DNA of 32,000 nt from Microcystis aeruginosa NIES-843 (GTDB lineage: Bacteria; Cyanobacteriota; Cyanobacteriia; Cyanobacteriales; Microcystaceae): the NCBI RefSeq assembly GCF_000010625.1, contig NC_010296.1, forward strand, positions 3,180,001-3,212,000. The letters are read 5' to 3'. A model generated the notes under the pieces. The model was not told the origin of the DNA, made no database searches, and saw only the letters and a program-made list of their open reading frames with translations. Numbering within the stretch: the stretch's first letter is position 1; each line of letters begins with the position of its first letter. Below, in pieces: positions 639 through 27,775 of the stretch. The position numbers and the translations under genes are program-made.

Positions 639-955
639 AAGAGGGTGTTGACCAGAGAGAGGACGATTGGCGCACCGATAAAAGCCACTAAACCCTTAAC
701 TGCGAATCCCGGGACGAGGATCGAGGCTAACCAGAAACAAAAGCTATTGAGAACAAGGATAAAGCCACCGAGGGTGAGAATAGTAATCGGTAGGGAAAGC
801 AGCCCTAGAATCGGTTTAACCAGTCCGTTGACTAAACCGATAACTGCCCCCGCAACCATGGCCACAATAAAGCTATCGACTTTAACACCGGGGAAGATAA
901 TATCAACCACTAATAAACTAAGGGCAGTGGCAAGAATATTTAGGGTTTGCGGCAA
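593..955 (-). CDS. DUF360 / phage-holin-4-like small inner-membrane protein; the present 5' end (TTG start) lies inside a MITE
   Basis: 120 aa with 3-4 hydrophobic helices (LSLLVVDIIFPGVKVDSF..., LLSLPITILTLGGFILVLNSFCFWLASILVPGF), typical of the family. Codons 1-5 are encoded by the MITE terminal repeat (see findings). Confidence 0.75.
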   Translation of the reverse strand: MPQTLNILATALSLLVVDIIFPGVKVDSFIVAMVAGAVIGLVNGLVKPILGLLSLPITILTLGGFILVLNSFCFWLASILVPGFAVKGLVAFIGAPIVLSLVNTLLNKYFAEKGSSEVPQ

Positions 956-1158
956 AAAGCTTTTCGGTGGTGGCAGGGTGTGGGGTGTGGGGTGTGGGGT
1001 GTGGGGTTTTATCGATTTTCAGGTGGTCAACTACCTAATTTTCAGGGAAAAAGTCCAGGAATTTTCCCCCCGATCCCCGCAATGGCTGGCACTTTTTGAG
1101 GGGAAAAAAGTCCAAAAGTCTTATCCAACAAGGTTTTTAGATTTATTCAGCAGACCCT
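942..1158. mobile_element. MITE (217 bp) with IS5-type termini AGGGT(T/C)TGC and a 4-bp target duplication ATTT
   Basis: The left end is AGGGTTTGCGGCAAAAAG. The right end AAGGTTTTTAGATTTATTCAGCAGACCCT closely matches the right end of the IS5 element at 8019-8046. ATTT is present at 938-941 and 1159-1162. A GGGGTGT array lies inside. Confidence 0.8.
976..1006. repeat. Heptanucleotide tandem array (GGGGTGT) x ~4.5, STRR-like
   Basis: Read directly: GGGTGTGGGGTGTGGGGTGTGGGGTGTGGGG. Confidence 0.95.
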
Positions 1159-1194
1159 ATTTAAAAGAAGGCCGATCATCGAAAATTTGGGTCT

Positions 1195-4601: not shown

Positions 4602-5582
4602 GTGAAGGAAGCGGCAACGGCGATCATTTTAGTATTGGGGGCGGTTTTAGATTATCTGATCGGCGATCCCTGGGGATGGATTCATCCGGTGCAGGTGATG
4701 GGGGCGATTATTGCCGTTGCCACAAAAGTTATCCTTAATTGGATGCGGGAAAAAATCGGCCAACGTTTAGCGGGCATAATTCTGGGACTGGGTTTAATTA
4801 TCTTGACTGGGGCCTTAACTTGGCTAGGAATCCAGTGGTTAGATCAGGTCAATTTGCTGCTGAGTTACCTAGTACAAGTGATTCTCCTGGCCAGTTGTTT
4901 AGCCGGCAGAAGTTTACGCAGGGCTGCCGAAACCGTCACCGCAGCTTTACAAGCGGAAAACATCACCTTAGCTCGTTGCCAACTAAGTTTATACGTTGGT
5001 CGCGACACAGATAATCTCGGCCGGGAAGAAATCCTCCGCGCCCTATTAGAAACCGTCAGTGAAAATGGTGTGGATGGAGTTACCGCGCCGCTTTTTTATG
5101 CCCTTCTCGGTGCTTTTCTGGGTGTGGGGCCAGTTCCCCTCGCTTGCGCTTATAAAGCCGCTAGTACCCTCGATTCGATGATTGGCTATCGTCGGCCACC
5201 CTACACCCATATGGGTTGGTTTAGTGCCAAAAGCGAGGATGTTTTGACATGGCTACCTTGTCGTTTGACGGTATTAACTCTCGCCCTAATTTCGGGCCAG
5301 CCGGGGCGGGTTTTAAGCATTTGTTGGCGCGATGCCCGTCGGGATCCTAGTCCTAATTCTGGTTGGAGTGAATGCGTCTATGGGGCGATTTTGGGGGTGC
5401 AATTGGGGGGTAAAAATCAATATCGGGGCCAGATTGTGGAAAAACCTTTATTGGGCGATAACCTCAAACCGATTACCGTCAAAACCGTCGAACAGGCTTT
5501 GAATTTAACTCGTACTTGTGTATTACTTTGGCTAGCGATCGCTGTCAGCTGCTTGATTGCTAGAGATTTTGCTCAATTGTAG
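4602..5582 (+). CDS. cbiB: Adenosylcobinamide-phosphate synthase CbiB/CobD
   Basis: 326-aa polytopic protein starting at GTG. The motifs HPV..MG, GRDT..L, E..SENGVDGVTAPLFY and GY and the overall length fit CobD/CbiB. Confidence 0.9.
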   Translation: MKEAATAIILVLGAVLDYLIGDPWGWIHPVQVMGAIIAVATKVILNWMREKIGQRLAGIILGLGLIILTGALTWLGIQWLDQVNLLLSYLVQVILLASCLAGRSLRRAAETVTAALQAENITLARCQLSLYVGRDTDNLGREEILRALLETVSENGVDGVTAPLFYALLGAFLGVGPVPLACAYKAASTLDSMIGYRRPPYTHMGWFSAKSEDVLTWLPCRLTVLTLALISGQPGRVLSICWRDARRDPSPNSGWSECVYGAILGVQLGGKNQYRGQIVEKPLLGDNLKPITVKTVEQALNLTRTCVLLWLAIAVSCLIARDFAQL

Positions 5583-5897: not shown

Positions 5898-6060
5898 GGT
5901 CGAGGCGATGGTCGAGTTATGCCAATTTTAACCCACATTCCCCACTTCAAAGTGTAGGGGAAAGAAATCTAAGAAGCTGCCCGCGTATTTAGGGTCTGCT
6001 GAATAAATCTAAAAACCTTGTTGGATAAGCTGTTCGTAATTTAAATTGCTTGTTGAGATC

Positions 6061-6243
6061 AGGCGGTCGGCAGGGGGCGGTCGGCGGTCGGCAGAAGGCG
6101 GTCGGCAGGAGTCAGGAGATAGGAGACAGGTTTTGGGGGTTGGGGTTTTGGGGTTTTGGGGTTTTAGTTCAATTTCCCCACTTCCCCACCTCCCCAATTC
6201 ATAATTCATAATTCATAATTCCCACTCCCCACACCCCACACCC
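6061..6243. repeat. Cluster of different short tandem arrays: GGCGGTCGGCA-like units, TTTGGGG x ~4, CATAATT x 3, CCCCACA
   Basis: Read directly. The 66-aa ORF 6009-6209 is made of these repeats. Confidence 0.9.
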
Positions 6244-6362
6244 GTTCGGCTGAGCTCACGGCCGAAGCCCACACCCGTTACAGTAGAGCAGGAAGTCGCC
6301 TTCCCACCCCCTGCTTCAAAACCGGACTTACGACTTTCGCCGTATCCGGCTCCTGAGTAACT

Positions 6363-8046
6363 AGGGTTTGCTGAAAAAGTCATTGAAAAGTACAGGTCTC
6401 TTAATCAATGATTTCACTTAGCTACAAGCATAAGCTTTAGTTGTTGATTAATTTTTAAATTATAACTTATCCTAATCATTGACCGAGAAAAAGTGCTGTT
6501 TTTCCATTTCAGACATAAAAAAGCCCAAAAAACCTGCCTCAACAGGTTAGAAAGATTCATGACTAAAAAAGTAATAGCAATCGCTGAAAAGGAAGTATGA
6601 GGAAGTTTAGCCATCACTTTACCTAAGCTAAATCTTCTTTTCCCTTGTCCAAATTTGCCCTCTATACAATTCCGAATCCTCTCATCATCAGTAGCTTGTT
6701 TCTTTTGTTCTTTACTAACATTTTTGGCTGGTCTTCCTAATGGGGGACCACTGATTCTGATTCCCCTTTCTTTACACCAAGCTCGGTTTTCTCTGGTTCG
6801 ATAAATTTTGTCCACATGAACTGATTCTGGATAGTATCCTGTATAGTCATAATAAGCTTCTATTTGTGCTTTTAAATCTCCCGATTCATTAAAGTTATCC
6901 CAACTAATCCGGTCTAAAAATATGTAACCATCTATACAGCTTGCTGAGAATTTGGCCCCAAATTCTACGGGTTTTCCAGCTTTTCCTCTGACTATCGGAC
7001 GGATGTGGGGTTGAGTTAAGCTGACAATTCTGTCTTCAATACTCTGTTTGTTATTTTGGTACATCCAGAGTTGTTGGCGATAAACTTCTGTGACTACTAA
7101 TAACAGTTTATAGTCTCTTTTTTTCAAGCTTTGTAGAGAGGCTCCTTCTGCTAAAAGTTGTTCAATATGGTCGAGATTTCTTTTCAGATATTGCAGTTGT
7201 CTTTTTAGAGCTTTTCGTCTTTGTTTGACGGTAGGTTTTCTTTTTTTTGCTACTTCTAAATAACTTTTTCTGGCCAGGAGACGATAGGTTCTCGGTTTTT
7301 GAACAAGTTTTCCTTTTATAGTTTCCTAGAGAATATCAATAATTTTTTCGGTTTGTTTTCTTCCTTGATTTAACAGGTTTAAATCCGTAGGATAACTAAT
7401 ATCTGCGGGCGCACAACTGGCATCTAAAATTAATTTACCTCGATTTTCTGGTTGACTTTGGGTTTCGCTCTCTAACTTTTTTTCGGTGTTTTCTTCTTCT
7501 TTTATTTCTCTCGAATTTTTGACCATAAAGCGATTCACTTTATTAATTAGTTCCCGAGTGATTCTTTCTCGAAAGTGAACCAACATTGACGCTTCAAACT
7601 GGGGTTCATTGCTGTAGGCTGAAAACCCCAAGAAGTATTGTAAATAAGGATTTTCCTTGATTTGTTCTACCGTTTCTCTATCGCTTGTTCCTAATTTTTC
7701 TTTAATAATTAATGCTCCTAGTGCTGTCCTAAATGTTTTGGCGGGTGCGCCCATTTCTTCTGAAAAAAGTGATGCGTATTCCGCTTCAAATTCTGACCAG
7801 GGAATGAGGTTGGCCATAATTACCCAACGATTATCTTGGGATAATTTCCCCTCAAAGGGCAGCTCGAAGTTTTCTGGTGGGGTTGAGGGTAACTCGCTTT
7901 TACGGTACATTAGCACTAATTAGAGAAGATGCAAGGGTGATGCAAGGGTTTTAAGAGATTCTAGCAGATTTAAGTGCATTTGGGAAGCTCTCAATCAAGC
8001 TAAAAGCCCTTTCCTGTAAGGTTTTTAGATTTATTCAGCAAACCCT
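6363..8046 (-). mobile_element. IS5-family insertion sequence (1684 bp) with an apparent 4-bp duplication AACT
   Basis: Terminal inverted repeats AGGGTTTGCTGAA (6363-6375) and TTCAGCAAACCCT (8034-8046). AACT is present at 6359-6362 and 8047-8050. Confidence 0.85.
6414..7916 (-). pseudogene. IS5-family DDE transposase (InsH-like N-terminal domain), 500 codons with one in-frame TAG at 7326-7328
   Basis: ORFs 7326-7916 and 6414-7127 are in the same frame. The stretch between them is open (ETIKGKLVQKPRTYRLLARKSYLEVAKKRKPTVKQRRKALKRQLQYLKRNLDHIEQLL...). Only the single TAG breaks it. Confidence 0.85.
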
Positions 8047-8749
8047 AACTAGGCTACTGTCATTAGTAGAATAATAATGGGAATTATTATTTCCTTGTCT
8101 ATTCAACCCTCTTGGCTGTATCCCCACCAGACAAGATTGTTGGTTTTAGGGCGTATATGACCGTTGATTGTTGCTTAGACTTCCTAGTTACCCGTCCTTT
8201 GTCAGCATATCTTTGATATTACTCAAAGCCTTGGCTTTTAAGGACATCCTCTCCCTCTATTGACTTGCGGATGGTTTCCTACTGCCCCGAACGGGCAGAG
8301 TCAATCAGGGTTACTTCGTTCCCTATAACCATTGGTTGAACCCTTAGGATGATACTGTCCACAACAGAGTAACGGGAATGCCTTACTGATAGTGGTATGA
8401 GCTATCAGCCCCAACTCTGTTAACTTTTGTTTCGAGCCTGTCAGCCTTTTGGCTCGTGGGTGTTGACGATGGTTAATTCGTATCTTCGCCCCAGGGCTAT
8501 CCATAGGTTCTGGCTCAACGGGTTTCTGATTTAGGCTATCAGATACCGCTTTTTTTTCCTCGCTCACTACCTCAGATGTACCAAGTCTAAAGCAGCAGGA
8601 AATGCCGTCACTCTAGGCATCTAGAGGACAGGACTAAGGTTATTACTAACCCGCACCTGTAGGGTTATAAAGTTATCAAGGTACTACATTTACCAAGCGG
8701 CTAATCCTCTAAACGTCTTACTGTCTAGTTTCTAGCCAACGAATCGCAC

Positions 8750-8806
8750 CACACCCCACACCCTACACCCCACACCCCACACCCTACACCCCACACCCCA
8801 CACCCT
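8750..8806. repeat. Heptamer array (CCCCACA / CCCTACA; GGGGTGT on the minus strand) forming the 5' exon of the intron
   Basis: Read directly. Confidence 0.95.
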
Positions 8807-8840
8807 GTCCCCACGAAAAACTTTTTGCCGCAGACCCTAG

Positions 8841-9575
8841 TTAGCGTCCGAGGGCGTGTAATCCGTTAATAATTTCGGCACAGCGCTCGGTAACTGCCTG
8901 TAAAGCTTCTCTTTTGTTAGAAATCGGTGGCGGCAGCACTTCCCCGATGCGAATAGTTAAGGGGATACTATGGGGAAAAGAAGAACCTTTTGGAAAAATC
9001 TTTTCTGTCCCCCACAAACTGACGGGTAACAGGGGAACTCCCGCTTTAGCGGCAATCATCGCCGCGCCTAGTTTTGGTTGATGGATCAATCCGTCCTCGG
9101 TGCGCGTTCCCTCCAGAAACAATCCCACTGCCCAGCCCGCCGCTAATGCTCCCATCGCCGCCCGAATTGCCCCACGATCACCACTGCCGCGTTTGACGGG
9201 ATAGGCCCCATAAAGAGCGATCGCCTGTTTTAAAATCGGGATGGTAAATAATTCTTCTTTAGCCATATAAGCTACGGGACGACGCACGGCACAGGATAAT
9301 AGGGGTGGATCGAAGTAACTGGCGTGATTGCAGACGATAATCAGAGGATGACGCCGGGGGACATTTTCCACTCCGTAAACGCGACCGCGAAAATAGCCGT
9401 GTAGGGTTGGGCTAACGATCGACCATTTAAAGAGATGATATAAAACTAAACTGGCAAAAGGTTCTCGCTCTTGAGGCTGGTTCATGACTGACAATTGTTC
9501 CCTAGACATGGAAAAGCCCTCGGGAGTCTTGCCGTGTTTCGACCCCAAGGACTTTGCTTTCTTCTCACTCCTCAC
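8841..9575 (-). CDS. plsC: 1-acyl-sn-glycerol-3-phosphate acyltransferase (PlsC family)
   Basis: Acyltransferase motifs CNHASYFD (HX4D) and FLEGTRT. The true start may be the ATG 22 codons downstream (MSREQL..., about 9509). Confidence 0.85.
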   Translation of the reverse strand: MRSEKKAKSLGSKHGKTPEGFSMSREQLSVMNQPQEREPFASLVLYHLFKWSIVSPTLHGYFRGRVYGVENVPRRHPLIIVCNHASYFDPPLLSCAVRRPVAYMAKEELFTIPILKQAIALYGAYPVKRGSGDRGAIRAAMGALAAGWAVGLFLEGTRTEDGLIHQPKLGAAMIAAKAGVPLLPVSLWGTEKIFPKGSSFPHSIPLTIRIGEVLPPPISNKREALQAVTERCAEIINGLHALGR

Positions 9576-9896
9576 ACAATTAAAATATATAGCAATTTAT
9601 GGGTTAGGGAAAGGTTAAGCGTGCCGCTTTCTTAACTGGCATAATTACTTAGCTAGGGTTGAGAGCGGCAAAAGGATTAGCAAGATGTGTCCGACTAAAT
9701 CCTGTTTAAAAAGTATAGGAAAGTTGAGAGGGGTGCGTGGGTAGCGGCTTAGCAGCAAGCGGGGAGAAACAATCCATAACTTGGGAGTTAATCGCACTAT
9801 TAAAAACGGATTTGGTGTAATTAATTTTGCTTAGGTATTGAAAAAAAGTTGGGCTAAAATATAAAGGCCAAATCTAGTCAGAAAAAGAGAATTTTT

Positions 9897-10097: not shown

Positions 10098-10836
10098 GGT
10101 TTGGCCGGGGAACGGGGAACGGGGGTGTTGACGATGGTTAATTCGTATCTTCGCCCCAGGGCTATCCATAAGTTCTGGCTCAACGGGTTTCTGATTTAGG
10201 CCATCACAGCAATTCTCATTTTAAAAAGTAACAAGTGATACAGACAGAAACAAAGCTTTAAGCAAGCTACAAAATGCGCTCCCGCGAGTGCGACTGCATC
10301 GCAGAGAAGTGAGTATATAGAGTATTTATACTCAAAATATTTGAAAGATGGGAGAAATCTAGAACAAAAGTTCTCTACATCAGAAAGAGAACCAAATAAA
10401 AATTGATGATTGTTGTCTGTTGAGGTAAAATTATTAAGTTGGAAATATTAATTAATCAAACTGTTCTGCGATGACGAAAAAGGCTGTGACTTGAGAAATT
10501 CCTGAATTAATACAATTTTTAGTTCAAGAATTACATGACTTACCCGATGACAGAAAACCAGGAAACAATACCAAATATCAGGTAGAAGATGCAGTTAAGG
10601 CGGCTTTTTCGGTTTTTTTTACTCAGTCACCTTCTTTTTTAGAGCATCAACGTTTGATGAAAAGTAGTAAGGGAAAAGATAATGCTTCAAGTTTATTTGG
10701 TATCAAAAAAATACCTGGTGATAATCAAATCAGAAACCTGTTAGATCCTATCCCAGCTGCCACAATATTTGGCTCTTTTCAACAAGTCTATCAATGGTTA
10801 AAAAAACCGGGAGTTATTAAAAAATTTTTCTACTTA

Positions 10837-11870: not shown

Positions 11871-13854
11871 TAGATGAGGAAATTTTAATAGCTTTAGATG
11901 GTACGGAATATTTTTCTTCAAAGAAAATTAGTTGTCCCCATTGTAATTGCCGCAATCCTCGTAATGGAACGACAACTTATTTTCATGGTTGCGTCACGCC
12001 AATTGTGGTTTCTCCTGAGCAAAAACAAGTGATTAATTTAGAACCAGAATTTATTAAAAAACAAGATGGGCAGCAAAAACAAGATTGTGAAAATGCGGCT
12101 GTTAAAAGATGGTTAGATAAGAATCATCAAAAGAAGTATGGTTATCCTGTAACCCTGTTAGGAGATGACTTATACTCTCGCCAACCTATCTGTGAGTTAG
12201 CTCTAAAACAAGGTTATAATTTTATTTTTGTTTGTCTTGAAACTTCTCATAAAACCTTATATGAATGGCGAGAATTTTTAGAAAAAAGTGGAGAAGTTAA
12301 AACCGTAGAAAAGAAACAATGGGATGGACGAAAGAATCTCATTTATCGTTATCGTTATGTTTCTAGAGTTCCTCTGAGAGAGGTCGAGTCAAGTCTCGAA
12401 GTTAATTGGTGTGAAGTCACGGTCATTAATGAAAAAACACAGAAAATTATCTATCAAAATAATTGGATTACCAATCATCAAATTACTGAAAATAATGTTG
12501 AAAAAATTGTCAAAGCTGGACGCAGCAGATGGAAAGTTGAGAATGAAGGAAATAACGTTCTTAAAAATCACGGTTATAATTTAGAACATAATTTTGGTCA
12601 TGGTCAAAGTCATTTATGCGAGTTCTTGTTGTCTTTAAATTTACTAGCTTTTTTATTTCATACCGTTTTAGATTTAGTTAATCATACTTATCAAAAGATT
12701 CGTGAGTTATTAGTTACTCGCACCAGTTTTTTTAATGATATTCGTACTTTATTAAAATATTTTTGGTTTAAGAATTGGTCAGAGTTTTTCTTGTTTATTC
12801 TTACCGAATATGTCCCGCTCAAAAAAATAAATTCTAGTTAAAAATGTCAATTTTTCGAGAGAAGGAAAGATTATTTTATTCATTGAAAAAACCACAAATT
12901 AGGTCAGAATTTCAGCTAAATTTATGAGTTGAGATAAGTTTTTTATGGGCAGATATTTTAAAACTGTCTCTTGAAGCTAATTATGATGATTATCTTGAAA
13001 AAAAATGATAATTAGACAGAAGTTCTCTTGTTCACATAGAGAACTTTATCTTCTTTTGTTTTCAAAATGAGAATTGCTGAGGCCATCAGATACCGCTTTT
13101 TTTCCTCGCTCACTACCTCAGATGTACCCGGTCTCAAGCAGCAGAAAATGCCGTCACTCTAGGCATCTAGAGGACAGGACTAATACCAAATTTCTAAATT
13201 CCTGACAGACATAGAGCTTCTAAAATCCAAGACCATCCCGTTAAATACCCGATAGTGTCATTGGATAAACGATTTAAAAGAGCATCGAGTTTATCTCTTA
13301 AAGCATCAAGAGATTCAAAAGTTTCCCATGCCAGAAAATTTTTCAGGTACAGCCAAACTCTCTGTTGCGGGGTTAACTTCAGGACAACAAGAAGGTTGAT
13401 AAAACAAGATAATATTGTCGGGAATTTCTAAGTGTCCCGCCATATGTGCAGGAGCGTTATCTACTTGTAAAATATGTAATTCATTGGGAAAAGCTGGCGA
13501 TAGTTGTAATAGATATTCTCCGAAACAATCCCCATCTAAATGGGAGAATTCATAGAAGAAGCTTCTGCCCTGTCGAGGCTCTACAGGCCCGTACAGCCAA
13601 AAGCATTGGAAGTTATCTTGAAAATTACCAATCGGCTTAACTCCGAAAAGAGTTATTTTATTCCGAGCCATAGTGTGACCACCAAATCTACTTTCATCCT
13701 CGCACCAAAAACTTACTTTCTCGTAACGCTTTACTTTCTCGCTTTCCCTCTCTAGTAAAGCTTTTAGTCGTTTAGATAAGTTCGCTTTAAACTCATCTAC
13801 TTCGCCAGGCAATTGTCTCGGATTTCGTGGTCTAGGTACTTTTAATTTTTAATT

Positions 13855-15117
13855 GGGAGCATCTCACTTGTGCAATGAGTATTAATGCTTATAGCCGTCA
13901 AAAACTAGAAAATCTCGAACTTTATCACAAAGAGAAATGAGATTATAATAGTTATAACTTACGATTCAGAATATATCTCGATGGGAGGAACAATCCAATG
14001 TTATCAGAAAATGAAAAAAGAATTCAAGAGTTATCCCGAGAGTTGGGAGCGTGTCTCTATGAGCAATCCCAAATTAAGAAATTTAATAACTTGGGAGAAA
14101 TAGAGGAGACGGTCAGAGATTTAATGATTCAGTATGTTAACCCAGAAATCGGTATTTTTTTATCAAAACAAGTACAGAAGAAACCGCCGGTCGGACGAGA
14201 AAAGTGAAAAGTATTTTGGGGGAATTACCAATTACAGAAAAACAAGCGAAGAAGTTAGAAGTAAAGCCGAGAACTCAGATGAGTCCAATGTTAGAGAAGA
14301 ACTGTTTGCTATTAAGTGGCGATGAATCCTATGAGAAATCGGAGCAGAAAATCAAATCATTGACAGGAATTGCTGTTTCTCACAGTACCCAACAACGCCT
14401 CGTACATCGCTATCATTTTGAAGAATTACCGTCTAACCTAGAAGTCGAAGTCGAAGAAATGAGCATAGATGGCGGTAAGGTACAACTGAGAACTCCCAAG
14501 GGAGAAGCCTTAATTTGGCGTGATTATAAAGCAGTGAGTTTTCATCAACTGGGGGTAGCGGCTTTTTTTCAAGATAACTCGGCTTTATTAGATTTGGTTA
14601 ATTCTCAAGTTTTGGTTAAACCTTTAATTTGTTTAGGAGATGGACATGATGGTATCTGGAATTTATTTCGTCAGATAGGAGAGAAACATGAAAGAATTGA
14701 AATTTTGGATTGGTATCATTTAATCGAAAACCTCTATAAAGTTGGCGGGTCATTCCAGCGAATTGAGGAGGTAAAATGTTTTCTATGGAAGGGGGAAGTG
14801 GATGCTGCTATCTCTTGTGCGCGAAGGATGGTCAGAGCCTCAAGTTGAGAATTTTATTACTTATTTGAACAAGCATAAACATCGAATTGTCAATTATGGT
14901 TATTTTCAAGAAGAGGGGATTTCCATTGGTTCTGGCTCTGTGGAATCTCAGGTGAAACAAATTAGTTTTCGTGTTAAAATTGCCGGTGCAAGTTGGAATT
15001 CTGGCAATGTACCGCAAGTCCTTCGTCATCGCTGTGCCTATCTGAATGGTTCTCTTTTTTAACTTTTTTATTTACCTCATTAAGCATAAATGCTTAATGC
15101 AAAGGTGAGATGCTCCC
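13855..15117 (+). mobile_element. ISKra4-like insertion sequence (1263 bp) with an 8-bp duplication TTTTAATT
   Basis: The terminal repeats are GGGAGCATCTCAC and GTGAGATGCTCCC. TTTTAATT is present at 13847-13854 and 15118-15125. Confidence 0.8.
13998..15062 (+). pseudogene. Transposase of the ISKra4-like element, spread over three frames (13998-14207, 14204-14848, 14802-15062)
   Basis: The consecutive ORFs contain CLGDGHDGIWN and LDWYHLIENL motifs. I assigned the family from memory of ISKra4-type proteins and did not check it. Confidence 0.6.
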
Positions 15118-15516
15118 TTTTAATTGAGCTTCCTAATTCCTCTCTAACGAGACGATAAACTGTTGTATAGCTGACGGAAATTTCTCGAACGACCGAGAGC
15201 CAAAAATAAATCTCTTTATAGCTGGTAAAACCCACTGGGTCTTTTAATTCGTTTTGTAAAAGAGCGACTTCTTCTACCGAAATCTTTTTCGGTCTTCCTG
15301 GTGGGTTTCCTTCAGATAATAATCGCTCGATTCCTCCTTTTTTGTAAAAACTTAACCAGCGATGGATTGTTCTTTCCCCTCGTCCCATTAATACCGCTAA
15401 ATGGCGAACCGTCTCTACCTCCCCCATCTTCAAAAAATATAAGGACTGTACTTTAGCGTAGTGGACTGTTTCAGCTAAAATAGGGCAATAGCTCGAACAA
15501 GCAGAGGACATCAATC

Positions 15517-16785
15517 ATGGGAAGAGGTCGGCGAGATAAAGTCAATCTAACAGGGGAACAAAGAGAAAACCTCGAACAAATCAGTCGTAATGGCTATGCA
15601 CCAGCTAAAAAAATTCTCCACGCTCGGATTTTGCTGATGTGTGACGAGGGAGAACAGGCGAAAAGGAAATGGACAGATGAAGAAATAGGCGAAGCTTTAG
15701 AAGTTCATAGAAATACAGTGGGACGTATTCGTCAAAGATTTCTTCAAAAAGGCGAAAAACCAGCATTAGAACGGAAATCGAGAAAAACTCCCCCCACTCC
15801 GGCAAAAGTTGATGGAGCCGCCGCCGCCCAAATCATTGCCCTGTGCTGTTCGGAGCCACCATCTGGCCGAGCCGAGTGGACAATCCGACTATTAACCTCG
15901 GAACTCAAACAAAGACAAATTATCACCGAGATTTCCAGTCCAACGGTGTGGCGTACTCTAAAAAAAACCAATTACGCCCTTGGAAAACCCAAAGATACTG
16001 TATTCCGGAACAGGATTTAGCCCGATTTGTTGCCCAGATGGAAGTTGTCCTTGACCTGTATGGCACTCACACCATTTTTCTTTATTCGCGTCACAACGAA
16101 CACCGGCTTGGCAAGCATTCGAGCGTGGATGTCTGTCATGGATTTAGAAATTTGGTATCAGCCATCGGAAGAAGAACCGTTAATCGCGATGGATGAAGCA
16201 TCAAAGCAACTACTTGGAGAAGTTTACCCTCCGATACCCATGCAACCTGGACAAGATAAAAAAGAAGACTATCACTATAGTCGTGAAGGGGTTCAAGCCT
16301 TGTTCATGTTTTTTGACCCCCATCGAGGATGGAGACGGGTGAGTAACCGAGATAGTCGAACCCGAATAGATTGGGCAGAAGAAATTCGTCAATTATTGGA
16401 TGTGGACTATCCAAAGGCTCGAAAAGTCAAGCTCGTCTGTGATAATCTCAACACTCATAACATAGCCTCGCTTTATGAAGCATTTCCAGCACCCGTTGCT
16501 CATCGTTTAGCTAGAAGACTGGAAATTTATTACACACCTCGTAATGGTAGCTGGTTAAATGTAGCCGAAACTGAACTAAGCGTCTTATCGAGGCAATGTT
16601 TAGATAGAAGGATTTCTAGCAAGGAAGAACTGAAAAGGGAGATAGAAACCTGGCAAAAAGAACGTAATCAGACTGCATCTACAGTAATATGGACGTTTAC
16701 GACCAGCGATGCTAGGGTCAAGCTGAAACATCTTTATCCTGTGTTTGAGGAGGAGGAATCGGGAGAATCTATTGCACCAAATTAG
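15517..16785 (+). pseudogene. IS630-family transposase; A8 slip site at ~15960 and interrupted by a 95-bp insertion
   Basis: The HTH ORF is followed, in the -1 frame, by LKKNQLRPWKTQRYCIPEQDLARFVAQMEVVLDLY. After removing 16061-16157 it continues QPSEEEPLIAMDEASKQ...CDNLNTHN...YTPRNGSWLNVAE. Confidence 0.8.
16061..16155. mobile_element. 95-bp miniature insertion at a TA site inside the IS630 no. 3 transposase gene
   Basis: Deleting 95 bp plus one TA gives the in-frame sequence VVLDLYQPSEEEPLIAMDE. One end, read as reverse complement, is TACCAAATTTCTAAATCCATGACAGAC, about 25/27 identical to the terminus of IS630 no. 2 at 13184. The other end is only weakly repeat-like. Confidence 0.65.
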
Positions 16786-16900
16786 CTGAAACAGTCCAGT
16801 AGGCTAAACTACTTTTTTGTTGTTTCATTAATTCTTTTAAATCTTCTACTGACTCAACAATATCAATTTTGGGTACGACTGGCATCGCTAATTTATACAC

Positions 16901-17089
16901 TTAATGGGACTTAGGCGTTTTCGGTCAGCAAAAAAGGCTCAAACCATTACGGGACAAAGGGTTAACCTCGATTTATGATTTTCCTTGATATATCTGGGTT
17001 TCAGCGATTTTGGGCTTCTCGAAGTAAATCCCAAGCGGGGATTGGAGTTGAGGCTTTTCTCGATTTGTTTTTTGTCTAAGTCCCATTAA
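16901..17089. mobile_element. 189-bp MITE in the 5' leader of IS630 no. 2
   Basis: 14-bp perfect inverted termini TTAATGGGACTTAG and CTAAGTCCCATTAA. No coding capacity. Confidence 0.6.
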
Positions 17090-17142
17090 TCATCTTTTCT
17101 ATAAGTATGCCATAGTTTTTGAAATTTGGTATAAGGCTATTA

Positions 17143-17228
17143 AGCTTAGACGCACTTACATTGCACTTTAATATCCTGGAACGCCTTGTAGATAGGGATA
17201 CGAGTAGGAAACTTAAATGCGTCTAAGC
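17143..17228. mobile_element. 86-bp mini-MITE inserted into intron copy 2
   Basis: Inverted termini (A)GCTTAGACGCA and TGCGTCTAAGC. TTA is present on both sides (17140-17142 and 17229-17231). Removing it recreates the GGCTATTACTAACCC sequence seen in copy 1. Confidence 0.55.
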
Positions 17229-17335
17229 TTACTAACCCGCACCTGTAGGGTTATAAAGTTATCAAGGTACTACATTTACCACGCGGCTAATCCTCTAAAC
17301 GTCTTACTGTCTAGTTTCTAGCCAACGAATCGCAC

Positions 17336-17434
17336 CACACCCCACACCCTACTTCCCCATCACCCCACACCCCACACCCTACTTCCCCATCACCCCACTT
17401 CCCCAATCCCCCATCACCCCACACCCCACTCCCA
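17336..17434. repeat. Degenerate heptamer array (CCCCACA, CCCTACT, TCCCCAT, ...) flanking the 5' end of intron copy 2
   Basis: Read directly. Confidence 0.9.
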
Positions 17435-19058: not shown

Positions 19059-19288
19059 ATTCTGATTGACTGGTATCACTGGAAATGCCCACGCAAACCA
19101 CAAAATTGCACAATTGTCAATAGGGTTTGAGATGCGCTCACCCTGTAAATGAAACAGATCTACCCCTGAACGGTTACAAATTTTTGTTAACATATTATCC
19201 ACCGAAGAACCATGAATGTTAAAATCGCTGGCAATTCCCGATCTGAATCTTTACTATATGAGAGCAGTACAACCCAGCCAAACAGAGC

Positions 19289-19470
19289 GGGAGCATCTCA
19301 CCTTTGCAATGAGCATAAATACTTAGTGGAAAAATAGGCTTTTCGAGGGTAATTCTTGTTTTAATTCTCCATGTACGCAGTCTTTAAAAGCCTCTATTTC
19401 GTTCCAAGACACGATTAAGAGTGGCTTTTAGGCTAAGTATAATTACTTATCGCGTAAGTGAGATGCTCCC
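19289..19470. mobile_element. 182-bp MITE derived from the ISKra4-like element, 8-bp duplication AACAGAGC
   Basis: It has the same GGGAGCATCTCAC termini as 13855-15117. AACAGAGC is present at 19281-19288 and 19471-19478. Confidence 0.85.
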
Positions 19471-19497
19471 AACAGAGCCTGTTATTGTCGCTCAATC

Positions 19498-19679
19498 GGG
19501 AGCATCTCACCTTTGCAATGAGCATAAATACTTAGTGGAAAAATAGGCTTTTCGAGGGTAATTCTTGTTTTAATTCTCCATGTACGCAGTCTTTAAAAGC
19601 CTCTATTTCGTTCCAAGACACGATTAAGAGTGGCTTTTAGGCTAAGTATAATTACTTATCGCGTAAGTGAGATGCTCCC
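19498..19679. mobile_element. Second copy of the same 182-bp MITE, apparently identical, 8-bp duplication GCTCAATC
   Basis: GCTCAATC is present at 19490-19497 and 19680-19687. It lies 27 bp from the first copy in the same orientation. Confidence 0.85.
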
Positions 19680-20074: not shown

Positions 20075-20168
20075 CGGACAGGATAATTCCGACGGATAAG
20101 TAACAGTGAGATTGAGTCATCTAAGCCAATTAATACCCGCCGATAAAACTAATTTTTCAACAGTAAAC

Positions 20169-21259
20169 GGCCAATTCAAGTCTGAATTGCATCACTGTCT
20201 GATCTACCTTTATAGAATACCTCATTCGGGGTACGATAGTCAAGACATTTTCGAGGACGATTGTTAATCAAGTTTACGGCTCTTTCCACCTCCTCTGGCT
20301 TAACGATTTTAAAATTCGTTCCCTTGGGGAAAAATTGTCTTAACAGTCCCTTGGTATGCTCGTTTAATCCCCTCTCCCACGAATGATAAGGAGTAGCAAA
20401 ATAAAAATCTGCTCCTAGTTTCTGACTCAACTCTTGATGTCCACAAAATTCTTTGCCGTTGTCACAAGTAAAGGTTTTTCTTTTGTCAGGGTGAATCTCT
20501 TGAAAAAGTTTTTCTGTGACTCTATTGATTTCCGATGCGGTTTTGTTTTTGGCTAATCCTGCTCCTAAAAATTTCGAGGCTTTATCTACATGAGTAACGA
20601 GAACTCCTAGATGATTGCCTCCAATCATTGTGTCACTTTCCCAATGACCGATTTCAGTTTTCTGGTCAGCAATTACTGGTCGCTCGCTGATATCTACACG
20701 CCCTGGAATCCCTCCACGCTTACTTTTTGCTCCGCCTCGACTCTTTCTTTGACAAAGCCCCCGGCGTAAATATTTCTGGTACTCTCCACATCCGTGATAG
20801 TTCTGATAGATCATTTGATAGATGGTTTCGTGACTGAGAGATTCTTGACTGGCTCTTTTCAGACGACCTGCTATTTGTTCGGGACTATGATAATCTTTCA
20901 ATCCTTCTTTGACCAACTCTAAGGCTGACTCGCTGACATTTTTAAAGGGTTGTTTGGCATTTTTTCGCCTTGTCTCGCTTTGAGCTTGTGCTGTGTCAGG
21001 TAGATAGCAGCCAAGGGAACTTTGATTCCTTTTTAATTCCCGTGATATTGTGCTTTGATGACATCCGAGCCAGACGGCCATTTGCCGTTGAGATAAATTT
21101 CCCTCCTGACTAAGTTGGTAGAGCAAGTTTCTTTGTTCTATGTTAAGATGTTGGTGGCTCATTTTGGGTCTGATTTGTTTTTGTTAATGATCAGACAGTA
21201 CCTGATGAGCCTTTCTTTGTCAACTCTTGAGGTTGATGCGTTTCATTTTTGAATTGGCG
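20169..21259 (-). mobile_element. IS30-family element, copy A (1091 bp); no target duplication visible
   Basis: The ends are GGCCAATTC... and ...GAATTGGCG, the same termini as copy B. The flanks are AAC and CAG. Confidence 0.85.
20176..21162 (-). CDS. IS30-family transposase (328 aa)
   Basis: An N-terminal HTH (LSQRQMAVWLGCHQSTISRELKRN) and a DDE core (HWESDTM..., TCDNGKEF, WERGLNEHTKGLLRQF) are typical of IS30. The protein is identical to that of 21945-22931. Confidence 0.92.
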   Translation of the reverse strand: MSHQHLNIEQRNLLYQLSQEGNLSQRQMAVWLGCHQSTISRELKRNQSSLGCYLPDTAQAQSETRRKNAKQPFKNVSESALELVKEGLKDYHSPEQIAGRLKRASQESLSHETIYQMIYQNYHGCGEYQKYLRRGLCQRKSRGGAKSKRGGIPGRVDISERPVIADQKTEIGHWESDTMIGGNHLGVLVTHVDKASKFLGAGLAKNKTASEINRVTEKLFQEIHPDKRKTFTCDNGKEFCGHQELSQKLGADFYFATPYHSWERGLNEHTKGLLRQFFPKGTNFKIVKPEEVERAVNLINNRPRKCLDYRTPNEVFYKGRSDSDAIQT

Positions 21260-21847: not shown

Positions 21848-22938
21848 CGCCAATTCAAAAATGAAACGCATCAACCTCAAGAGTTGACAAAGAAAGGCTC
21901 ATCAGGTACTGTCTGATCATTAACAAAAACAAATCAGACCCAAAATGAGCCACCAACATCTTAACATAGAACAAAGAAACTTGCTCTACCAACTTAGTCA
22001 GGAGGGAAATTTATCTCAACGGCAAATGGCCGTCTGGCTCGGATGTCATCAAAGCACAATATCACGGGAATTAAAAAGGAATCAAAGTTCCCTTGGCTGC
22101 TATCTACCTGACACAGCACAAGCTCAAAGCGAGACAAGGCGAAAAAATGCCAAACAACCCTTTAAAAATGTCAGCGAGTCAGCCTTAGAGTTGGTCAAAG
22201 AAGGATTGAAAGATTATCATAGTCCCGAACAAATAGCAGGTCGTCTGAAAAGAGCCAGTCAAGAATCTCTCAGTCACGAAACCATCTATCAAATGATCTA
22301 TCAGAACTATCACGGATGTGGAGAGTACCAGAAATATTTACGCCGGGGGCTTTGTCAAAGAAAGAGTCGAGGCGGAGCAAAAAGTAAGCGTGGAGGGATT
22401 CCAGGGCGTGTAGATATCAGCGAGCGACCAGTAATTGCTGACCAGAAAACTGAAATCGGTCATTGGGAAAGTGACACAATGATTGGAGGCAATCATCTAG
22501 GAGTTCTCGTTACTCATGTAGATAAAGCCTCGAAATTTTTAGGAGCAGGATTAGCCAAAAACAAAACCGCATCGGAAATCAATAGAGTCACAGAAAAACT
22601 TTTTCAAGAGATTCACCCTGACAAAAGAAAAACCTTTACTTGTGACAACGGCAAAGAATTTTGTGGACATCAAGAGTTGAGTCAGAAACTAGGAGCAGAT
22701 TTTTATTTTGCTACTCCTTATCATTCGTGGGAGAGGGGATTAAACGAGCATACCAAGGGACTGTTAAGACAATTTTTCCCCAAGGGAACGAATTTTAAAA
22801 TCGTTAAGCCAGAGGAGGTGGAAAGAGCCGTAAACTTGATTAACAATCGTCCTCGAAAATGTCTTGACTATCGTACCCCGAATGAGGTATTCTATAAAGG
22901 TAGATCAGACAGTGATGCAATTCAGACTTGAATTGGCC
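21848..22938 (+). mobile_element. IS30-family element, copy B (1091 bp), 3-bp duplication AAT
   Basis: The ends are CGCCAATTC... and ...GAATTGGCC. AAT is present at 21845-21847 and 22939-22941. Excision restores the AAA+ reading frame exactly. Confidence 0.9.
21945..22931 (+). CDS. IS30-family transposase (328 aa), identical to copy A
   Basis: The translation in the ORF track is identical to that of 20176-21162. Confidence 0.92.
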   Translation: MSHQHLNIEQRNLLYQLSQEGNLSQRQMAVWLGCHQSTISRELKRNQSSLGCYLPDTAQAQSETRRKNAKQPFKNVSESALELVKEGLKDYHSPEQIAGRLKRASQESLSHETIYQMIYQNYHGCGEYQKYLRRGLCQRKSRGGAKSKRGGIPGRVDISERPVIADQKTEIGHWESDTMIGGNHLGVLVTHVDKASKFLGAGLAKNKTASEINRVTEKLFQEIHPDKRKTFTCDNGKEFCGHQELSQKLGADFYFATPYHSWERGLNEHTKGLLRQFFPKGTNFKIVKPEEVERAVNLINNRPRKCLDYRTPNEVFYKGRSDSDAIQT

Positions 22939-23374
22939 AATTAAGTGCAGAATAAGGGAAGGGTTGTATATTTCTTAATCCCCACTCATCAAATACTAAT
23001 TTTTCAAGGACTGAAATTTTACTAGCTATTAGTAATTCTTCCTTAACTGATTCAGGAACGACTAATTGTTCCATTGAAAAATTCGGCTTTTGGCTACGAT
23101 ACTGCTCCGCTCTTTCCTCTAGGGAAATAGAATTTGCTTTACTGACAGACGCTTTGTTACTATTTTTGCTCAGATTTTTGACGGAGTTTAAATCTACACT
23201 TGAGGAAACAATTAAAGGTAAATTTTCTTTTCCGATTTTTTCTAAATAGCTTTGCCAAGCTGCATATATTCTGGTTTTGAAAACAAGAAAATCTTTTTCA
23301 CTTTCTGTGGTGGTTGGTATATCCTGAAATATAATTTCGTCTTCCATGTTGTTTGCTTAAATTTTTGTATTGAC

Positions 23375-27655: not shown

Positions 27656-27775
27656 TTGATAAGGGGGGTGCCGGTAGGCGGGGGGATCTCCCTTGATAAG
27701 GGGGGCATCTGATAATTTTTAACGCCTACCTACTTATAAAGTCGATGTCTGATAACTGATAATTGATCGCTGAAT

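Follow-up and report, generated by a model that had tools for sequence, protein, structure and literature searches.

A stretch of 32,000 nucleotides from the genome of Microcystis aeruginosa NIES-843 (NC_010296.1, positions 3,180,001 to 3,212,000, hereafter the window) contains on its minus strand a group II intron of 785 nt without an open reading frame (ORF), composed of the segments 8749..8046 and 6357..6277. The element very probably represents a Microcystis-specific multi-copy family, derived through loss of the gene from a cyanobacterial lineage of introns that encode a protein combining a reverse transcriptase (RT) domain with maturase and HNH domains. The intron is located in an array of GGGGTGT heptamers within a MITE (miniature inverted-repeat transposable element) derived from the IS5 family, and is itself split between domains IV and V by a full-length insertion sequence (IS) of the MITE's own family (1682 bp, 8045..6364). 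Literature searches brought up no paper describing the intron, nor any on Microcystis GGGGTGT arrays, and this particular family with its heptanucleotide-repeat target appears to be unreported in the literature searched; ORF-less cyanobacterial introns as such are already known.

The 5' end of the intron, GTGCG, is located at 8749, where the sequence changes from heptamers to GTGCGATTCG, and a long non-repetitive stretch runs from there down to 8046. After the IS block the sequence resumes as TAGTTACTCAGGAGCCGGATACGG, and the 3' end is found at 6277 (...CUACUGUAAC / ...CTCTACTGTAAC). Deletion of 8045..6358, namely, the IS and one copy of the repeat TAGTTA (1688 nt), gives the reconstructed intron of 785 nt, colinear at 98-99% with intact, uninterrupted 785-nt copies on the metagenomic Microcystis contigs L121 (99.2%) and L125 (98.1%). 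The initial annotation, made from the sequence alone, had set apart the same 1688 nt as 6363-8050, and its description of an intron of about 785 nt that starts with GTGCG, ends in AAC and contains a 34-nt domain V followed by a domain VI-like hairpin was borne out. Domain V is located at 6352..6319; domain VI, at 6314..6280, is represented in the minimum free energy (MFE) fold by a 15-bp stem with one bulged A at 6284 (nt 778), 8 nt before the 3' end. Domain IV, of about 140 nt, contains a short hairpin at 8093..8069, and no ORF is present in it, so the element is ORF-less and non-autonomous, as had been proposed. A 5' boundary moved by one G was rejected: with GUGCG as canonical start and the 3' end given by Rfam, the boundaries are fixed at 8749 and 6277.

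The Rfam scan of the whole window showed RF00029 (domains V/VI) as the sole intron match, at 6354..6277 of the minus strand, with a score of 55 bits (gathering threshold 40, E = 2.3e-8) and coverage of model positions 1-77 of 77; the group II assignment of the initial annotation thus passed a search with Rfam group II models. The model of domains I-IV, RF01999, gave only 26.7 bits, which is below threshold. The MFE of the intact copy has a z-score of -6.7, and the single-sequence fold yields domain V, domain VI, a domain III-like arm and the short domain IV hairpin.

Metagenome contigs searched for the 25 nt that open the intron also yielded introns of an Oculatellaceae metagenome-assembled genome (MAG), L123, L126, L127 and L131, and one of another contig, L132; a 591-aa RT-maturase-HNH gene is located in domain IV of these introns (TIGR04416, 328 bits). 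An intron of Ktedonobacter (L049/L120), the protein of which is 53% identical, was obtained from a genome scan. The Microcystis element is alignable across domains I-III with L131, L132, L126 and L049. For the alignment of these five introns, RNAalifold predicts 131 pairs; standard pairs are formed in 90.4% of cells, as against 33-43% when the 3' partners are slid by 1-3 columns, and compensatory double changes are found in 67 of the 131 pairs, as against 12-25 when slid, neither value being reached in 500 shuffles. The consistent multi-domain fold expected of such an intron is, accordingly, conserved with covariation. A pair UAUGG/CCUAAG, resembling a GAAA-tetraloop receptor, brackets the EBS-bearing part of domain I (EBS, exon-binding site) and may be the zeta receptor. 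Structural class IIB ("chloroplast-like" lineage) is a candidate assignment; the proteins encoded by the introns alignable with this one contain RT, X and HNH domains.

Several further loci were considered for the alignment and not used. The intron L029 (UBA11372) was dropped because its 5' end is ambiguous. Four loci of a Hormoscilla sp. MAG (L001, L071, L083 and L100), with domains V/VI 79-86% identical to those of the Microcystis intron, have only domains III, V and VI in common with it and were left out because the position of their 5' ends was uncertain. The stretch examined around each of these four loci showed no RT gene, and they may represent a related ORF-less family in another cyanobacterium. 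A scan of genome contigs with a degenerate domain V pattern was too permissive, returning 120 loci from many phyla, among which the close relatives were only six contig ends of a Microcystis MAG.

The exon-binding sites of the intron correspond to the heptamer array. EBS1, CAUACC (nt 351-356), is located in the 9-nt loop of the hairpin 341-365 and pairs with GGUGUG at positions -6..-1 of the 5' exon; it is the sole site of the intron complementary to GGUGUG with at most one G-U pair. EBS2, ACACCC (nt 287-292), pairs with GGGUGU (-14..-9) and is the only perfect complement in the intron. The complementarity to the GGGGTGT exon sought in the initial annotation is therefore present for both elements, each at a unique site, and EBS1 and EBS2 would each read one heptamer unit of two successive units. 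The hairpin homologous to 341-365 pairs with the exon end in three relatives, a covariation of intron and target: the loop CAAGCA faces the 5' exon end UGCUUG in L132, GCAGU faces ACUGU in L126, and UGUUUC of L131 faces GAAGCA, the exon being that of L123. For EBS2, a pairing AUGUCA/UGGCAU was identified in L126 by eye from the alignment.

The junctions of the other copies agree with these boundaries. All nine independent 5' junctions read TAGGGTGTRGGGTGTR^GTGCG (the caret marks the junction), i.e., TAGGGTGT(G/A)GGGTGT(G/A)^GTGCG, and all nine 3' junctions read CTGTAAC^GG. The 5' junctions named are the two of the window and those of L121, L122, L125, L128 and L130; L124 and L129 represent the locus of the second window copy. 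The expectation that further copies share the GTGCG and AAC ends held for every junction read. When the flanks of the window copy are joined (...GGGGTGTG + GGGTGT), the heptamer register is kept, as had been noted at the outset, and the insertion site has the form TAGGGTGTRGGGTGTG^G, with insertion before a G. The target-like 15-mer GGGTGTRGGGTGTRG occurs 13 times in the window versus 0 expected occurrences; G-rich heptamer arrays are known in cyanobacterial genomes (PMC4692102).

About five of the 13 known sites are located in the same MITE family (the window copy, L125, L034, L084 and L110), and the remaining ones in free-standing heptamer arrays, with one in a gene. The latter copy (L074, positions 1-890 of the minus strand; M. 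aeruginosa MAG SFCA01000100.1) interrupts, in frame and at motif I, a gene for an S-adenosylmethionine-dependent methyltransferase. Its 3' exon translates as G-T-G-T-A-R... and matches Methyltransf_11 from profile position 4, which shows that the intron splits the G-C-G codons GGG TGT G^GA (ACT GGT) of motif I; this gene would need splicing for expression. Since about eight of the 13 sites lie outside the MITE, one of them in the methyltransferase gene, the homing target is the heptamer sequence and not the MITE as such. Accordingly, the initial suggestion of homing into MITE-borne repeats stands as regards the in-register insertion into a MITE array, and does not stand as regards the MITE as target.

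An empty site was found in a closely related strain. The acyltransferase encoded next to the host MITE is identical to a protein of AP019314.1, the genome of M. aeruginosa NIES-102 (PMC6930136). NIES-102 and the window are 99.95% identical over 14622-8749 and then 99.1% identical over 6276-1, and exactly 8748..6277 is absent from NIES-102 (one G being ambiguous), with the number of heptamers unchanged. The locus of NIES-102 is thus an empty site at the predicted splice boundaries, containing the very sequence obtained by joining the flanks, and the presence/absence difference between near-identical strains suggests recent mobility. Comparison of NIES-102 (L133, 2007-4889) with 14615-17227 of the window revealed at least three further insertion or deletion events within 20 kb, with about 99.9% identity over the matched stretches. 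A 1.3-kb IS630-like element is present only in the window and a 1.5-kb element with a 447-aa ORF only in NIES-102; a 188-bp difference was also found.

One explanation of this distribution dispenses with retrohoming: a single ancient insertion into a MITE would have been multiplied passively, by transposition of MITE and intron together or by recombination between repeats. The sites in the MITE family do occupy the same relative position, the IS and MITE families of Microcystis are very active (PMC2779907), and the region differs from NIES-102 by the other insertions mentioned. Nevertheless, this explanation is highly improbable, because the same MITE copy lacks the intron in NIES-102 with an exact joint, non-MITE arrays and the methyltransferase gene are occupied, always at the same 15-nt motif, the MITE-borne copies differ in the number of downstream heptamers (0, 1 or 2) and in their MITE interiors, and the EBS/IBS pairing (IBS, intron-binding site) accounts for the common motif. 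It is possible, though the less likely course, that NIES-102 lost the intron precisely or received an intron-less allele by recombination, without any recent gain in the window strain: the intron already bears an IS, suggesting some age, the flanking heptamers could promote deletion, and allele exchange between strains would be plausible in a recombining population. Slippage, however, would usually alter the repeat count, whereas the array length is unchanged and the joint exact; the direction, gain or loss, leaves the identity of the element unchanged.

The nested arrangement consists of an IS5-derived MITE, the heptamer array in it, the group II intron in the array and, in the intron, a full-length IS of the MITE's own family. 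The host element starts with (C)TAGGGTCTGCGGCAAAAAG directly after the TAA of the acyltransferase gene and continues for about 30 nt, followed by eight heptamers GGGGTGT/AGGGTGT at 8806..8750 (TRF periods 7 and 21); it ends with ...TTTATTCAGCAGACCCTA at about 5990. The ends (TA)GGGTYTGC...GCAGACCC(TA) are common to this element, the intron-free MITE 941-1159, the MITEs of L125, L034, L084 and L110, and the IS. The initial annotation had placed the array in a MITE with IS5-type ends, and such ends, homologous to those of 941-1159 and of the IS, were identified at about 8839 and 5990. TATTTA flanks 941-1159 on both sides, and the host copy is flanked by TAACTA and TAAATA, with one mismatch. The family is short (<600 bp), non-coding and multi-copy, with terminal inverted repeats matching an autonomous IS and a flanking duplication, as is typical for MITEs. 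For the genome of NIES-843, 240 copies of the 219-bp MaeMITEa and eight copies of ISMae6 (IS5 family, 1686 bp) have been reported (PMC2779907); the MITE 941-1159, of 219 bp, and the IS, of 1682 bp (1686 counting TA at each end), correspond to them by length and family only, while the host copy, of 378 bp, is a variant that differs in its interior, which is rich in repeats. This interior (5990-6276, minus strand), unlike that of the 219-bp MITE, is a patchwork of AATTATG (three times), GGGGAAGT, AAAACCCC (four times), CTCCTGA, CCGACCG and a GC hairpin.

The 1.7-kb block to which the initial annotation had only alluded proved to be a full IS5-family element of the host-MITE family, with an IS5-type DDE transposase, inverted repeats and the 6-bp direct repeat TAGTTA. 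The transposase is represented by two ORFs of the same frame (7916..7326 and 7127..6414; products of 194 and 237 aa), the first ending at an in-frame TAG (7328..7326). They match the two halves of NF033578 with 212 and 211 bits, the cut-off of 275 referring to the whole protein, as well as the Pfam families DUF772 and DDE_Tnp_1_2. Sixteen further contigs, from various samples, encode the very same 194-aa product, so the TAG break characterizes this IS lineage rather than the individual copy; the stop may be read through, or the transposase may consist of two parts.

At the site of the IS the intact copies read gcctagttactcagg, and six contig ends of one Microcystis aeruginosa MAG read through the domain IV-V junction as gcctagttactcaggagccgg. 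Because intact copies are uninterrupted here, the IS is a secondary insertion and TAGTTA its target duplication; in the window the intron would have come first and the IS afterwards. It is also conceivable that a donor intron already loaded with the IS, giving an RNA of 2.47 kb, about the size of an ORF-containing intron, retrohomed into this array as one unit. Domain IV is the region where group II introns tolerate large inserts, the strain that is about 99.9% identical lacks both elements at once, at the exact intron boundaries, and two separate hits on one 785-bp target within a short time seem a priori improbable. A DNA transposon would in this case have travelled as cargo of the intron and been copied by way of RNA, its landing site being provided by a MITE of its own family. 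The IS is absent, however, from all eight other copies with a readable domain IV-V junction, no second GCCTAGTTA^GGGTTTGCTG junction was found among the ten other copies of the IS, none of which is flanked by intron sequence, and IS turnover in the region is very high. Arrival as one unit is therefore very doubtful, and two separate events, intron and then IS, are favored.

The second copy in the window comprises only nt 1-295 of the intron, in three pieces separated by blocks with IS630-type and other transposase ORFs; the rest is absent from the window. The copy that the initial annotation had noticed at 17335 does have the identical 5' exon, but is not a full copy, being a 3'-truncated fragment split in three. 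The 9-nt overlap of the second and third pieces looks like a target duplication. The fragment stops inside EBS2 (CAACACCCCCG) and passes directly into (TTCCCCG)n (10120-10140, minus strand). The latter is another heptamer repeat, seen in its C-rich strand, and the fusion suggests that the EBS2 region recombined with a repeat array. The same locus is simpler in another strain (L124) and different again in NIES-102.

Remnants of the lost gene flank domain IV, ...GUCAUAUACGCC being alignable with the region of the L131 start codon and ...CUACUAAUGA with that of the L131 stop. A protein search with the L131 intron protein returned only matches from filamentous cyanobacteria, with at least 71% identity, among the matches listed. 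The plasmid collection gave no Microcystis match, and two scans of viral contigs gave nothing. Contigs of the abundant clusters P0106, P0043 and P0083 were rejected as a possible parent, their ribozymes being unlike the Microcystis intron. Seven group II RTs have been reported for M. aeruginosa NIES-843, among which six near-identical ones are fused to a domain of the HNH type (PMC8934634).

The following course of events, standard for non-autonomous group II introns, is the most likely one. The intron would be transcribed by read-through from the co-oriented acyltransferase gene (9509..8841, PF01553); no terminator-like site was found between the stop codon of this gene and the intron. Splicing would be aided by an RT/maturase made by another intron of the genome; such dependence on a maturase in trans is a sound expectation from the Thermosynechococcus precedent. 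The resulting ribonucleoprotein would reverse-splice into DNA at two successive G-rich heptamers chosen by EBS1 and EBS2, before a G, and the inserted intron would then be reverse-transcribed. Later, an IS5-family element of the MITE's family would have transposed into the linker between domains IV and V. With GGGGTGT arrays scattered in Microcystis genomes and built into an abundant MITE family, many harmless landing sites are available, the present MITE copy among them.

Several results weigh against such an ORF-less, trans-mobilized intron. ORF and profile searches, and tblastn with the related intron protein, revealed no RT/maturase ORF in the intron, elsewhere in the window or in the Microcystis loci examined. 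None of the sequences searched contained an RT-encoding intron whose ribozyme closely resembles this one; the driver protein is therefore hypothetical, and splicing activity, mobility and trans-mobilization are presumed. The EBS2-IBS2 pairing is confirmed in only two of the four related introns, with no clean match in L131 and L132. Some copies are disrupted, this one by the 1.7-kb IS, the second copy being wrecked and that of L122 carrying an ISL3 element at nt 140, and many may be dead. Most target matches of the window, including those in the intron-free MITE 941-1159, are unoccupied; perfect sites being empty, current activity should be low or absent. The difference from NIES-102 could, moreover, represent loss or allele replacement and not gain.

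The same disrupted copies, together with the missing driver and the empty perfect targets nearby, would fit a decayed, inactive relic, a pseudo-intron kept in junk DNA. This is rather unlikely: identity among the intact copies, and between them and this copy, is 98-99%, the catalytic domain V has remained intact, as have the branch site and the EBS sites, near-identical strains differ in its presence, and the copy in the methyltransferase gene would be deleterious unless spliced.

Table. Coordinates in the window of the intron, its exons and associated mobile elements.
Feature	Position	Strand	Details
5' exon	8750..8806	-	(GGGGTGT/AGGGTGT) x8 array; IBS1 GGUGUG 8755..8750; IBS2 GGGUGU 8763..8758
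Intron nt 1-704	8046..8749	-	5' GUGCG, domains I-III, ORF-less domain IV
EBS elements	EBS2 8463..8458; EBS1 hairpin 8409..8385; EBS1 8399..8394	-	
Tetraloop-receptor-like UAUGG/CCUAAG	~8505..8501 and 8348..8343	-	
Intron nt 705-785	6277..6357	-	Domains V and VI, bulged branch-point A 6284, 3' ...GUAAC
3' exon	6229..6276	-	GGGTGTGGGC, short hairpin, more GGGGTGT units; interior of host MITE
Second TAGTTA target-duplication copy	6358..6363	-	First copy 8051..8046 = intron nt 699-704
Host MITE-like element	5990..8839	-	~378 bp without cargo; begins at stop codon of acyltransferase gene 8841-9509
Intron-free MITE	941..1159	+	Exactly 219 bp, MaeMITEa-like; unoccupied (GGGGTGT)x4.6 array at 976-1007
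IS5-family IS (ISMae6-like)	6364..8045	-	1682 bp; termini GGGTTTGCTGAA...TTCAGCAAACCC, perfect 12-bp inverted repeat
Second intron copy, piece 1	17229..17335	-	nt 1-107, 99%; identical 5' exon; non-MITE heptamer array 17336-17433
Second intron copy, piece 2	13080..13183	-	nt 113-217, 94%
Second intron copy, piece 3	10120..10206	-	nt 209-295, 97%

Other features of the window include further mobile elements and repeats. Two 1096-bp copies (20164-21259 and 21848-22943), 100% identical and inverted with 588 bp between them, each encode a 328-aa transposase with HTH_38 and rve domains (IS30-like). At 19288-19679 a MITE-like unit bounded by GGGAGCATCTCAC...GTGAGATGCTCCC is perfectly duplicated in tandem (209 bp, 1.9 copies), and ends related to this unit are also found at 13849-13904 and 15068-15123. 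Short TAACTGA/CTGATAA heptamer arrays are present at 438-463, 567-592 and 27749-27767, the first two in a 92-nt unit repeated 129 bp apart; repeats of this type are known from Beggiatoaceae and cyanobacteria (PMC4679880). A 395-aa protein of the IS605 OrfB/TnpB type (OrfB_IS605, Cas12f1-like TNB, HTH) is encoded at 1270-2457 of the plus strand, a short way downstream of the intron-free MITE. The Cyano-1 RNA motif (RF01701, 52.2 bits, gathering threshold 41) was identified at 9508-9581 of the minus strand, just upstream of the acyltransferase ATG at 9509, and is apparently a 5' leader; it recurs in L124, the orthologous locus, at 5190-5263.

These data add a well-delimited ORF-less intron family to Microcystis, a bloom-forming genus with an extreme load of IS and MITEs, the introns of which have received almost no attention in the literature searched. 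They show how a simple repeat, together with the 219-bp MITE family that bears such an array and numbers 240 copies in NIES-843, can offer a retroelement a large stock of harmless landing sites. The intron family may be used as a strain marker and as a candidate for finding a driver RT in Microcystis; current understanding of group II intron function is unchanged.

Among known systems, the RT-maturase-HNH introns of filamentous cyanobacteria (L131, L132 and relatives in Crinalium, Nostoc and Tolypothrix) share with the Microcystis intron an identical first 26 nt, covarying domains I-III, the position of the EBS1 hairpin, homologous flanks of domain IV and the 3' end ...UAAC/UAAU; they differ in the presence of the gene for the 591-aa protein, in their unrelated sites, in the sequence of domain V and in low identity outside the conserved cores. 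Class C (IIC) introns, including the IIC-attC group, insert after terminator hairpins or attC sites; they are small, recognize DNA stem-loops, and their EBS2 is short or absent. A repeated non-coding motif serves as target in both cases, but the Microcystis intron is large and apparently IIB-like, with ordinary EBS1 and EBS2 pairing. RmInt1 of Sinorhizobium meliloti has its natural homing site in the insertion sequence ISRm2011-2. In both systems a repeated mobile element offers a multi-copy safe landing site; RmInt1, however, encodes its own protein (PMC4615759 for copy number and protein type) and has a unique target inside an IS, whereas the Microcystis intron is ORF-less and its target is a microsatellite also found outside the MITE.

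The TeI3 introns of Thermosynechococcus elongatus (Mohr, Ghanem and Lambowitz 2010, PMC2882425) are likewise cyanobacterial, multi-copy and ORF-less, a deletion in domain IV having left the two ends of the ORF as remnants, and are located mostly in non-coding DNA with good EBS/IBS pairing. They are mobilized by the "driver" proteins of related introns, as is presumed for the Microcystis intron. One member of the T. elongatus family, TeI4g::ISEL2f, carries an IS (PMC2882425). The arrangement in the window, which had been described as an unusual parasite-on-parasite one, is therefore less unusual than proposed, as trans-mobilized ORF-less introns, one of them with an IS, are present in Thermosynechococcus (PMC2882425). 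The Microcystis intron differs from TeI3 in its host, in the lack of detectable close sequence kinship and in its tandem heptanucleotide target, read by both EBS1 and EBS2, and its mobility is deduced from sequence, whereas that of TeI3 is experimental.

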